64,000 nucleotides of DNA from Candidatus Poribacteria bacterium (GCA_963665285.1 OY762266.1:1032059-1096058), one strand, 5' to 3'. Counted from the stretch's first letter, positions 7,452 to 43,943 are shown. Made by a program: numbers and translations. Notes: generated by a model from the letters alone, not told the origin.

Positions 7452-7510
7452 GAGAGTAGCAGTACGTCTTGATTGGGCAACAAGTGCAAGAAGATAGGAA
7501 AGATTTGTTC

Positions 7511-8473
7511 ATGAAACGAAAATTAGTTTGGAAAATGTTGCTGATAGGGAGCAGTCTGTTGACACTAAACGCTTGGGGCAATAAGACGATTTCCTTCACC
7601 GCTGATCTGACGGGAAACCTCGACATCTACATCATGGATATCAATCGCAAGAATCCCGTCAACCTAACCAACCATCCGGCGGAGGACTCTTCCGCGACAT
7701 GGTCACCAGATGGCAGCGCTTTCGCTTACGTTTCACACAGGGATGGTAATCCAGAGATTTACGTGATGGAGATGAAGAACAAGGAATCTCGGCGGCTGAC
7801 GAACAACCGGGCAACTGACATCGATCCCGCTTGGTCGCCCGATGGACGCTGGATTGCCTTTGCATCTAACCATCACAGGGAACACGCGGCAGATACCGAC
7901 ATCTACATAATGAACCCAAACGGAAAGAAGGTTCAACAACTCACAAACAAGGGTGGACACAATTCAACACCGGCGTGGTCGCCGGATGGGCAGAGTATCG
8001 CATTCCGCACTACACTCGATGGTATCGGGGCGATCCATCTGATGAACGCAGACGGCAAAAAACAGCGCGCCCTCACGCAGGTATCCGCGACAAACCCCAC
8101 GTGGGCAGCCAGCGGCAAAGAGATCTACTTCTCTAGCGATATGTTCGACAATGTAAAGATGCCTACCCTGTTTGCCATAGATGTTAACGGGGGAAATGTC
8201 CGGAAGTTAGCAAACGCCGCCCAAGCCTGCGAGCAACCTGCCGAATCGCCCAATGGACAATGGATCGCCTATGTGTCAACTCAGGGCAATAACAAAGACA
8301 TCCATCTACTCGGTGTGGCAGATGGGGGGATCCAACAATTGACACAAGATCCAGGACAGGAATTTTCTCCTGCATGGGTGCCGTTAGGGTTCTCTGTTTC
8401 ACCAAACGCACACATGCGGACAACGCTCTGGGGAACCTTGAAGCAAACAGGTTTACAGTCAATCCACCGCTAA
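7511..8473 (+). CDS. TolB-like periplasmic beta-propeller protein (PD40/WD40-like repeats)
   Basis: Signal peptide, then repeated ...WSPDGxxIAFxS...DIYxM... blades typical of the TolB C-terminal propeller. Confidence 0.7.
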   Translation: MKRKLVWKMLLIGSSLLTLNAWGNKTISFTADLTGNLDIYIMDINRKNPVNLTNHPAEDSSATWSPDGSAFAYVSHRDGNPEIYVMEMKNKESRRLTNNRATDIDPAWSPDGRWIAFASNHHREHAADTDIYIMNPNGKKVQQLTNKGGHNSTPAWSPDGQSIAFRTTLDGIGAIHLMNADGKKQRALTQVSATNPTWAASGKEIYFSSDMFDNVKMPTLFAIDVNGGNVRKLANAAQACEQPAESPNGQWIAYVSTQGNNKDIHLLGVADGGIQQLTQDPGQEFSPAWVPLGFSVSPNAHMRTTLWGTLKQTGLQSIHR

Positions 8474-8483
8474 AGTTGTAGGT

Positions 8484-8510
8484 GGGGCATCCCCGATAAG
8501 ATCGGGATTT
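8484..8510. repeat. REP-like palindromic element (GGGGCATCCCCGATAAGATCGGGATTTT), copy 1 of 3
   Basis: Inverted version of the AATCCCGATYTTATCGGGG motif also present at 43915-43943 and 58538-58562; hairpin followed by a T-rich run, so possibly also the terminator of the TolB-like gene. Confidence 0.4.
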
Positions 8511-8559
8511 TGTTGCGCTCAACTTGCTGCGCAATCTACTTTTGTGGCGCAACGGAGCC

Positions 8560-9975
8560 TTTACCAATCTTGCGTGCAATGCCCCATCCCTTTAGGGTGG
8601 GGCTGTAGCCCGCCCAAGTGCGTTGTTAGTCAAAAAACGGTTGAAATTGCAGGAAAAGATGCTACAGTTACCTTGGCTTTCGTGAGAGGGCGCAACTTCC
8701 CTGCTTAGTGGTGTCTCTCACCTCCAATTGCGTGGACATGAACTCCAGATAGCCGAGTCCCTATGAAAACCTACAAGTTCAAAATGTATAGCAACCACAA
8801 TAATCGTGAGTTGCAAAAAACGATTGACAGCCATGCTCACGTGTGGAATCACTTTGTGGCGTTGTGTCGCCGATACTATGCTATCTACGGGACATATCCG
8901 GGTAAGAAAGCACTGATGCGCCACTTAACCAAGTTGAAGCGGCTTCCCCGCTTTGCCCATTGGAATCAGTTGCCGAGTCAATCGTTGCAAGACGTGATAG
9001 ACCGACTTGATAAAGCGTACTCTAAACTGTTTACTGACAGCAAAAGCGGCAAACGTTCGGGTCGTCCCCGTTTCAAGAGACGTAAACTATACAAGTCCTA
9101 CACGCTCAAGCAAGCCGGTTGGAAACTGCTACAAGACAACTATATCCGTATCGGCAAACGGATATACCGGTATTTCAAAAGTCGGGAAGTCTTAGGCACG
9201 CCGAGACGCTGCACGATTAAGCGCGACAGCGTAGGAGACGTATGGCTAATCATTCTGACAGACCATGTAGATACCGATTTAGAGTCGCCCACGACGGGTA
9301 ATAACGCGGGGTTTGACTTTGGACTAAAGAGGTATCTCACCGGGTCTGACTTCAATGACTACGACTCTCCACAATTCTTCAAGCGCGGTCTCAACGCTAT
9401 CAAACGCGCAAACCGCAACCACTCACGAAAGGTTAAAGGTTCAAACAACCGTGAACGTGCGAGACTCAATGTTGCAAGGAAACACCGGCGTATTGCCAAT
9501 CAAAGAGCCGACTTCCATTGGCAGCTAGCGCATGAGCTAACAGACCGGTATGATTGGATTTCACTGGAGACCCTCAACATTAAGGGCCTGAAGTCCCTTT
9601 GGGGTCGTAAGGTCTCTGATTTGGGGTTCTATGACTTCGTACAGAAACTGAAGTATATTGACTCTAAGAAACAGCATCGTGAAGTCCGATTCATTGATAA
9701 GTGGTATCCATCAAGCCGAACCTGTCACGGCTGCGGCATAGTTAATCAAGACCTGAACCTTCGTGATAGAACATGGCAGTGTCCAAGCTGCCACACACAG
9801 TTGGATAGAGACCGCAATGCGGCACTCAATATCCATAGGGTGGGGGCATCCACCCTCTCAGAAGAGGTCGTAAGTCCCAGTTCACCGGGCTAACTTCGTT
9901 GATAGAGCAATTCGACGCCTTAAAGGGAACGGGTGAGAATACCCACCCTTTAGGGTGTGGGAGTATGTCAATCCC
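8560..9975 (+). mobile_element. IS200/IS605-family insertion sequence of the tnpB-only (IS1341-like) type; boundaries approximate
   Basis: TnpB ORF flanked by similar subterminal hairpins sharing the core CCCTTTAGGG (8581-8603 and 9943-9961); no tnpA present. Confidence 0.5.
8763..9893 (+). CDS. tnpB: TnpB (IS605 OrfB family RNA-guided endonuclease-like protein)
   Basis: C-terminal RuvC-II (SLETLNIKG), zinc finger CHGCG...CPSCH and RuvC-III DRDRNAALNI motifs; 376 aa. Confidence 0.9.
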   Translation: MKTYKFKMYSNHNNRELQKTIDSHAHVWNHFVALCRRYYAIYGTYPGKKALMRHLTKLKRLPRFAHWNQLPSQSLQDVIDRLDKAYSKLFTDSKSGKRSGRPRFKRRKLYKSYTLKQAGWKLLQDNYIRIGKRIYRYFKSREVLGTPRRCTIKRDSVGDVWLIILTDHVDTDLESPTTGNNAGFDFGLKRYLTGSDFNDYDSPQFFKRGLNAIKRANRNHSRKVKGSNNRERARLNVARKHRRIANQRADFHWQLAHELTDRYDWISLETLNIKGLKSLWGRKVSDLGFYDFVQKLKYIDSKKQHREVRFIDKWYPSSRTCHGCGIVNQDLNLRDRTWQCPSCHTQLDRDRNAALNIHRVGASTLSEEVVSPSSPG

Positions 9976-10792
9976 ACCGTGCCCAGACGTTCGGGGTGAC
10001 CTGCCCCTCGTCAATGTACGGATCTTCACCAGCGACAGTGATAATACCGCGGTAATTTCGCTGCCCCTTCCAACCCAACCACGATGCTGTTGAACAATAG
10101 TGGCTCACAAAGATACGCCGAAATGTGTCGCTTCGGTTCTTTTTGGAACGGTGTAAGAGGTAACCGTTGAAAAAGAGGACACTGCCAGCTGACATCTCGA
10201 TCGGAATCTCGGCAGTGTCATCAAAACCCACAGCTTCTTGGCAGCTGTCGAATTCATCGCGTTTGTCGTGCGGCACACGATCGTAAATTACACCGGAACG
10301 ATGGCTATTTGGCAGAACCCAAAGGCAGCCGTTCTCAATTGTGGCATCATCTAATGTAATCCACACGCCAATCAGCGATCTATCCCGTGTCGGAATCGGA
10401 TGTTCGTCTTGGTGCCAAGGGTTACCGGTATGCCCAGGGACTTTGCTCAACATCATTGACTGCATGCACTTCACCCCACCGTCCCAAAATGGGATATGCG
10501 CCCCAACAATGTCTCGGAGTACTTCACAGATTCCTGGATGCTCAATGTAACGCCGAACCAAAGGGCTAAAGACATGCGGTTCGCCGACACACATGATTCT
10601 ATCTAATACTTCTGTCTCGCTTGCTGTTCCCGGCATCGGCGGGATCGCCTCACACGGATAATCCCCCCGAAAAATCTTCAGCATCTCTGTTTTCAAATCG
10701 TTGCATTCTTCCGGTGTAATGAGATCCGGAAGCATTAAATATCCGTCGTTGATATAGGATTTTGCCCAAAGATTAGAATGCCCTTGTTCCAT
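9968..10792 (-). CDS. Phytanoyl-CoA dioxygenase (PhyH) family Fe(II)/2-oxoglutarate oxygenase
   Basis: Motifs WHQDEH, LWVLPNSHR and LLHRS characteristic of the PhyH family. Confidence 0.85.
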   Translation of the reverse strand: MEQGHSNLWAKSYINDGYLMLPDLITPEECNDLKTEMLKIFRGDYPCEAIPPMPGTASETEVLDRIMCVGEPHVFSPLVRRYIEHPGICEVLRDIVGAHIPFWDGGVKCMQSMMLSKVPGHTGNPWHQDEHPIPTRDRSLIGVWITLDDATIENGCLWVLPNSHRSGVIYDRVPHDKRDEFDSCQEAVGFDDTAEIPIEMSAGSVLFFNGYLLHRSKKNRSDTFRRIFVSHYCSTASWLGWKGQRNYRGIITVAGEDPYIDEGQVTPNVWARWD

Positions 10793-43914: not shown

Positions 43915-43943
43915 AAGTCGCTTTGAATCCCGATTTATCGGGG
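43915..43943. repeat. REP-like palindromic element GCTTTGAATCCCGATTTATCGGGG, copy 2 of 3
   Basis: Same motif as 58538-58562 and inverted at 8484-8510. Confidence 0.4.

Follow-up and report, generated by a model that had tools for sequence, protein, structure and literature searches.

A probable IS200/IS605 insertion sequence with tnpB alone, overlapping the phyH stop codon in Candidatus Poribacteria, and its predicted omega-RNA

The DNA studied here is a 64-kb stretch from Candidatus Poribacteria, called the window below, whose positions serve as coordinates throughout. Part of it, lying at the 3′ end of a convergent gene for a PhyH dioxygenase and overlapping that gene's stop codon, was described in an earlier note as a TnpB-only element of the IS200/IS605 type with matching subterminal hairpins, no tnpA and a predicted omega-RNA at its 3′ end. 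Comparison with related copies bears out this description and leads us to conclude that window positions 8565-9971 are very probably a TnpB-only IS200/IS605 insertion sequence (IS) from a family that has expanded to hundreds of copies in the genomes of these sponge symbionts: the element has tnpB as its only gene, is multi-copy, lies 3′ of TTAC and shows no target duplication (Table 1). A protein search with the window TnpB returned 4366 relatives with E < 1e-10, the best of them at 94% identity, and a scan of one genome per species gave 150 stretches that were confirmed by tblastn. The 79 best loci (L001-L079), all from Candidatus Poribacteria metagenome-assembled genomes, form with the window element the set of 80 copies used in what follows; more than 20 of the 79 sit on a single chromosome, OZ252032.1.

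The ends of the element were defined, as the earlier note had proposed for the ends and the target motif alike, by the search for other copies, which placed them at 8565 and 9971 next to a TTAC motif. On the right, where the element reads ...GAGTATGTCAA and its final base is A9971, the pattern GAGTA[TC]GTCA[AC] forms the terminus in 80 out of 80 copies, which lie in unrelated flanks (the last bases are GTCAA in 76 and GTCAC in 4), and the next 20 nucleotides (nt) are different in all 80. Since a shared terminus is followed by immediate divergence, the window element must end at 9971, and not at about 9962 as first thought; likewise, the right end had been placed about 5 nt beyond the phyH stop codon, which is off by about 6-9 nt, for the element overlaps that codon. 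On the left, similarity among the paralogues starts at TTAC and continues with CAATCTTGCGTGCAATGCCCC...; long alignments resolved the left boundary in 48 copies, of which 27 have TTAC there and 21 have TTAT. Neither the window element nor the copies have target duplications or terminal inverted repeats, and the same ends are found at different genomic sites at all 79 loci besides the window. An alignment with MAFFT of the 430-500-nt flanks of 39 copies was unreadable because these flanks are unrelated, and was replaced by motif-anchored and BLAST-based mapping of the boundaries.

Table 1. Features of the element and its surroundings (window positions; aa, amino acids; ORF, open reading frame; TAM, transposon-adjacent motif; LE, left end; UTR, untranslated region)
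Feature	Position	Strand	Basis or remark
PD40 beta-propeller gene, the other neighbour	7469-8473	+	Pfam
TTAC, target and TAM, outside the element	8561-8564	+	Last conserved bases at the left boundary of the paralogues
Element, probable IS200/IS605 family, non-autonomous	8565-9971	+	Comparison with 79 paralogous copies
LE: outer stem, AATG tetranucleotide, imperfect hairpin	8565-8620	+	Conserved in copies
LE outer stem	8569-8577 with 8608-8618	+	Co-varies among copies
DNA guide tetranucleotide AATG	8578-8581	+	Fourth base co-varies with the TAM
LE imperfect hairpin, CCCCA-T-CCC TTTA GGGTGGGG	8582-8602	+	Conserved at the same position in paralogues
Promoter-like site for tnpB: TTGAAA, 16-nt spacer, TG-n-TACAGT	8641-8668	+	Consensus scan; putative function
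Conserved 5′-UTR stem-loop of the presumed tnpB transcript	8680-8721	+	Alifold helix, 80 copies; downstream of the promoter-like site
tnpB, 376 aa	8763-9893	+	Sole gene of the element; ORF, Pfam, PDB alignment
RuvC residues D185, E269, D350	9315-9317, 9567-9569, 9810-9812	+	ISDra2 alignment
Zinc finger C321xxC324...C340xxC343	9723-9791	+	Retained in ISDra2 alignment
Predicted omega-RNA scaffold core	9836-9971	+	Last ~18 tnpB codons and 78-nt 3′ non-coding part; may extend 5′ to ~9760
Helix H1 (GGGTGGG / loop / CCACCC), inside the ORF	9838-9855	+	99.8% of cells paired
Helix H2 (CCCAG TTCA CCGGG), directly before the stop codon	9876-9889	+	Double changes in 5 of 5 pairs
Near-invariant linker CTTCGTTGATAGAGCAATTC	9894-9913	+	At least 90% conserved in 80 copies though mostly non-coding
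Variable hairpin module (CCTTAAAGG...)	9914-9936	+	Length and sequence differ by subfamily; small hairpin kept
Right-end imperfect hairpin (A)CCCACCC TTTA GGGTG-T-GGG(G)	9941-9961	+	In 80 of 80 copies
TCAA, the 4 terminal nt of the element; right cleavage site (transposon-encoded motif)	9968-9971	+	Common terminus of copies
Predicted guide portion, flank TCCCACCGTGCCCAGACGTT	9972-9991	+	From the TnpB mechanism (PMC10055086) and the boundary; length of 16-20 nt assumed
phyH, PhyH dioxygenase, 274 aa	9968-10792	-	Pfam PhyH E 3.8e-40; convergent with tnpB

The product of tnpB had been credited with intact RuvC motifs and a zinc finger, and this was confirmed. Pfam finds OrfB_IS605 (PF01385, E 5.2e-20) and Cas12f1-like_TNB (PF07282, E 7.6e-19) in the 376-aa ORF, and HTH_OrfB_IS605, the N-terminal domain of TnpB, gives a match below threshold. 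The protein aligns over its full length with the ISDra2 TnpB structures (8bf8/8exa/8h1j; E 2.5e-40, residues 2-361 versus 5-372); the RuvC triad D185 (AGFDFG), E269 (ISLETL) and D350 (LDRDRN), equivalent to D191/E278/D361 of ISDra2, is retained, as are the zinc finger cysteines between C321 and C343. We thus regard the TnpB of the window element as apparently intact, judging from its sequence, and as a putative RNA-guided nuclease. The ORF is also intact (~375 aa) in 77 of the 79 paralogous loci. The other two, L026 and L059, are interrupted by premature stops, after 399 and 126 nt of ORF; their right ends are normal, and they are therefore taken to be decaying copies.

The subterminal hairpins of the earlier note are present at 8582-8602 and 9942-9961 and are conserved at the same positions in the paralogues, with compensatory changes in the LE outer stem, of which GCGTGC/GCACGC, CCGATCT/AGATCGG and GCGGGC/GCCCGC are variants. 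All 80 copies have the right hairpin; its sequence takes three forms, each with the stem preserved (CCCCACCC/GGGTGGGG, CCCAATCC/GGTTTGGG and CCCCGTCC/GGGCGGGG), and its foot is followed in all copies by the 10 nt AGTATGTCAA, ending in TCAA. The two hairpins, centred on CCCTTTAGGG, belong to a direct, not inverted, repeat of 20 nt (8588-8607 and 9946-9965, 85% identity), and the 15-mer CCCTTTAGGGTGKGG is found at these two sites only in the 64 kb, where 0.18 occurrences are expected and where two or more were seen in 1 of 100 shuffles. The tetranucleotide located 5′ of the LE hairpin, AATG in the window, is complementary position by position to TTAC. In TTAC-flanked copies its final base is G in 34 out of 36 cases (AATG, AAAG, AAGG), and in TTAT-flanked copies it is A in 20 out of 25 (AAAA, AAGA); this G/A switch is also seen between left ends that are otherwise very similar and differ at that base. 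No covariation with TCAA or TCAC was seen, among the family copies, for the tetranucleotide 5′ of the right hairpin.

This arrangement resembles that of IS608 of Helicobacter pylori, a member of the IS605 group. From the work of He et al. (2011, PMC3201880), we know that IS608 inserts 3′ of TTAC, that its left cut is made 3′ of TTAC, 19 nt 5′ of the left hairpin foot, and its right cut after TCAA, 10 nt 3′ of the right hairpin foot, and that both cleavage sites are recognised by tetranucleotides located 5′ of the hairpins, AAAG in the case of TTAC. The window element shares with IS608 the position 3′ of TTAC, the absence of duplication and of inverted terminal repeats, the subterminal imperfect hairpins, a TCAA 10 nt beyond the right hairpin, and the reading of the target by four bases that precede the left hairpin (AATG, AAAG or AAGG in the Poribacteria family). 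It differs in that IS608 has both tnpA and tnpB and the window element tnpB only, in the distance from TTAC to the left hairpin foot (19 nt in IS608, 16-17 nt here), in the hairpin sequences, which are unrelated, and in its host, a sponge symbiont. The comparative evidence thus supports a target choice made as in IS608, which would require a Y1 TnpA. Across L001-L079, the TnpB clade at 81-94% identity has mostly TTAC and the ~70% clade mostly TTAT, so that the TAM specificity of TnpB has probably co-evolved.

For the omega-RNA, the final 260 nt of each of the 80 copies were aligned and examined with RNAalifold and explicit counts of base pairs. Two helices, H1 and H2, carry the prediction. Taken together, 97.7% of their cells are paired versus 81.9% in column shuffles, seven of their pairs have changed on both sides, and their covariation score is 0.367, a score that does not exceed 0.079 once the partner is shifted by 1-3 columns. 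In H1, the pair 9842:9851 is U-A in 34 copies, G-C in 27 and A-U in 15, and is broken in none, so that two third codon positions, one in a Val and one in a Ser codon, co-vary; in H2, one of the pairs is G-C in 40 copies, C-G in 18 and A-U in 15. The coding sequence is constrained here as well: the normalised synonymous-codon entropy is 0.25 in codons 361-376 (9843-9890), as against about 0.68 elsewhere and values of about 0.65-0.8 over most of the gene, with a smaller dip in codons 334-340 (9762-9782). The window RNA from 9800 to 9971 folds with -68.1 kcal/mol (z -4.19), and none of 200 shuffles folds as well. The structured 3′ end announced by the earlier note is thus conserved in 80 copies, with covariation in H1 and H2. 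Its limits, given as about 9750-9965, did not stand: constraint is strong from about 9836 to 9971 and patchy up to ~9760, and, with the element ending at 9971, the start of the guide moves from beyond 9962 to 9972. On this comparative basis, we infer that the constrained 3′ region is an omega-RNA scaffold, followed from 9972 by the guide (TCCCACCGTGCCCAGACG...), and that this RNA would be expressed, processed and used for cleavage. The sequence from 9972 is that which would follow TTAC in an empty site, as the TnpB homing model requires.

Other pairings may exist in the same region. The variable hairpin (9915-9927) differs little from the reverse complement of the right-end palindrome (9946-9958), CCTTAAAGGG versus CCCTTTAGGG, and in the minimum-energy RNA fold the two pair with each other, replacing two local hairpins. 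Their loops change in step in some subfamilies (TTCA with TGAA, TTGA with TCAA); several subfamilies have unrelated loops, and the complementarity is exact in a minority of copies only. A possible explanation is that these are alternative folds, one for RNA and one for DNA. RNAalifold also pairs the Asp350 codon GAC/GAU (9810-9812) with an invariant GUC (9967-9969), in a possible long-range closing helix of the scaffold; the counts are C-G 47 and U-G 33, with none broken, and are uninformative because the changes are one-sided only. Four copies (L034, L051, L059 and L066) have insertions of 21-40 nt within the 3′ structured region.

One may ask whether the 3′ structures are signals on DNA for the transposase, or a terminator for tnpB or phyH, rather than an omega-RNA scaffold. 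The right hairpin and TCAA are indeed known TnpA substrates in IS608, and the minus strand has a predicted terminator-like hairpin at 9948-9931. We nevertheless find this very improbable, because the solved TnpB homologues (8exa/8h1j family) use exactly this region as guide-RNA scaffold, because H1 and H2 co-vary through synonymous codon positions, and because they lie 82-134 nt inside the right end, far beyond the ~45-56 nt of the IS608 TnpA substrates (RE45/RE56, PMC3201880).

Several observations weigh against a functional TnpB-only element with an omega-RNA. The Infernal search advised in the earlier note was run against Rfam 15 over 8400-10200, with E up to 10, and matched no omega-RNA family, although whether Rfam models this TnpB clade was not checked; the structure was for that reason tested directly on the 80-copy alignment. 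(Matches to HIV-1_DIS, sn2429 and HCV_5BSL1 were at chance level and belong to unrelated families.) Some of the conserved structure near the right end could serve TnpA on DNA instead of RNA. The DNA folds of the two ends are not significant alone when single sequences are considered (z -1.8 and -1.0). Three mismatches set the window copy itself apart from relatives: one in the LE outer stem, A.G at the right hairpin foot and, shared with 11 other copies, A.C in H2 at 9879:9886. At 170 TnpB columns, conservation among the 77 other intact copies reaches 95% or more; in these, the sole departure of the window protein is M276L, next to RuvC-II, where the others have M in 77 out of 77. Finally, in agreement with the earlier note, neither the element nor the rest of the window yielded a tnpA, and none turned up within 2.5 kb of any of the 79 copies (~395 kb of flanks). 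This search, carried out on the window and all loci by tblastn with an IS608 TnpA sequence and with a regular expression for the Y1 signature, is a weak negative.

The absence of a tnpA nearby, these mismatches and M276L, together with the interruption of 2 of the 79 paralogues, are also what one would expect of a dead relic, that is, a fossil copy whose TnpB and RNA are non-functional and whose conserved features reflect recent common descent only. Such an origin seems unlikely to us. The window ORF is intact and retains the other 169 of the 170 conserved columns. For the nearest paralogue, with a dS of 0.18, the ratio of nonsynonymous to synonymous substitution rates (dN/dS) comes to 0.19; over 33 comparisons with paralogues, which reach out to dS ~1, it lies at 0.11-0.39, with a median of 0.28. 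Descent alone would not produce the compensatory changes of H1 and H2, for which selection must have acted on pairing: the slid-register control, which retains the relatedness of the copies, is the one that scores no higher than 0.079 versus 0.367 for the true register.

The TGA stop codon of phyH is the complement of 9968-9970, i.e. it lies within the element. By means of a degenerate pattern on the phyH C-terminus, we found four metagenomic orthologues that lack the element and have 90-93% aa identity; they end in ...VWARWE-stop and read ...cTAC|TCCCATCG at the insertion point, with a TAC|TCCCA junction, whereas the window phyH ends in ...VWARWD-TGA. Joining the left flank (...GGAGCCTTTAC) to the right flank (TCCCACCG...) yields exactly the element-free arrangement of the orthologues, from which it follows that TTAC belongs to the flank and not to the element. 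An exact match to the reconstructed empty site, GGAGCCTTTACTCCCACCGTGC, was found 0 times in metagenome contigs. On the minus strand, the joined flanks read TGG GAG TAA and the sequence with the element TGG GAT TGA. TTAC is therefore the complement of G plus TAA, namely the last base of the Glu274 codon and the stop codon, and since the T of GAT and the whole present stop codon derive from the terminal TCAA of the element, the insertion caused the change E274D and replaced the stop codon of phyH, with no truncation of the gene (window 9968-9973).

A guide starting at 9972 would run antisense to phyH at its 3′ end, which brings to mind a domesticated TnpB, for example a TldR-like transcription regulator guided by RNA or a protein with some other host function; domestication of TnpB is documented (PMC10705468). 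For the window element we hold this to be extremely improbable: the catalytic D-E-D triad is intact, the gene is flanked by intact transposon ends, and there are dozens of copies per genome, at unrelated sites and with unrelated guides.

How such an element would move can be outlined from its likeness to studied systems. Most tnpB genes are without tnpA and are thought to be mobilised in trans, and TnpB cuts the donor joint (Meers et al., PMC10055086). The window element would have been inserted as single-stranded DNA by a TnpA of the Y1 (HUH) type encoded elsewhere. This TnpA would bind both subterminal imperfect hairpins, locate TTAC, the left cleavage and target site, by pairing with the AATG 5′ of the left hairpin and, as in the IS608 mechanism, cleave on the right just past TCAA, at 10 nt from the right hairpin on its 3′ side. 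Transcription of tnpB would start from a conserved left-end promoter, and the 3′ part of the transcript (~9836-9971, possibly from ~9760) would fold as the omega-RNA scaffold, the next 16-20 nt from 9972 being the guide. TnpB with this RNA would then cleave TTAC-TCCCACCGTGCCCAGA..., the empty site left by excision or present on a sister chromosome that lacks the element, and recombinational repair would restore the element. Another possibility, which we consider distinctly unlikely, is that the TnpB family has reached dozens of intact copies in each Poribacteria genome while these genomes have no cognate Y1 TnpA; it would then spread or persist by a TnpA-independent route, e.g. through TnpB homing alone between chromosome copies or between the genomes of co-resident symbionts, or else its copies would be kept for a host role, e.g. 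by providing guides antisense to gene ends such as that of phyH.

Two further systems lend themselves to comparison. In ISDra2, the stretch coding for the guide-RNA scaffold covers the 3′ end of tnpB together with the right end of the element, as predicted for the window element, and the TAM is TTGAT. The window TnpB is homologous to that of ISDra2 over its full length and has the same RuvC triad and zinc finger, but it is shorter (376 aa versus 408 aa), ISDra2 has a tnpA of its own, and no similarity between the RNAs is detectable at the level of sequence or of Rfam. The TnpA-less ISGst-type elements of Geobacillus stearothermophilus (PMC10055086) are alike in that each genome has dozens of copies with tnpB alone, in that the ends are conserved, and in having a TAM specific to the clade as well as a transposon-encoded motif; for them, too, mobilisation in trans is presumed, along with TnpB homing. 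They belong to another phylum, have other end sequences, and in Geobacillus the cognate tnpA was identified and tested.

Upstream of tnpB, the promoter-like site coincides with a block beginning at TTGAAATTGCAGG, which is the point where similarity most widely sets in across all subfamilies. The 5′-UTR stem-loop that follows shows many compensatory pairs among the 80 copies (e.g. AU24/CG22/GU15/UA13 and CG56/UA20); its inner stem is weaker in the window copy, according to single-sequence folds. It may act in mRNA stability, in regulation, or as a left-end DNA structure. A separate palindrome, (T)CCCGAT(A/T)3-4ATCGGG(A), is present in the window at 8492-8506 and 43929-43942, and a variant of it is the terminator-like hairpin after the PD40 gene. 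It occurs at 11 sites in 491 kb of Poribacteria loci (L012, L027, L028, L029, L034, L037, L049, L066 and L067), 4 of the 11 being within TnpB elements, as insertions in the 5′ region or in the variable region of the omega-RNA, and it looks like a small dispersed repeat of the repetitive extragenic palindrome (REP) type.

TnpB-only elements of the IS605 family are among the commonest genes in prokaryotes, and for that reason the element matters little in itself. It belongs to a well-known kind, and its large and diverse expansion in Poribacteria, for which a literature search on Poribacteria together with TnpB found no paper, is of modest interest. The same holds for the clean covariation of DNA guide and TAM and for the replacement of the phyH stop codon; none of these points would surprise a specialist. 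For practical purposes, a compact TnpB of 376 aa with TTAC as TAM, and with a right end and scaffold limits set by 79 natural variants, offers a basis for testing as a small genome-editing nuclease. For those who annotate genomes, the phyH case means that such elements can land on a stop codon, replace it and leave the gene undamaged; TTAC targets being the complement of GTAA, stop-codon insertions may be common. For the biology of these elements, the Poribacteria family constitutes a natural data set in which the DNA guide in the left end, the TAM (TTAC or TTAT) and the TnpB clade vary together.

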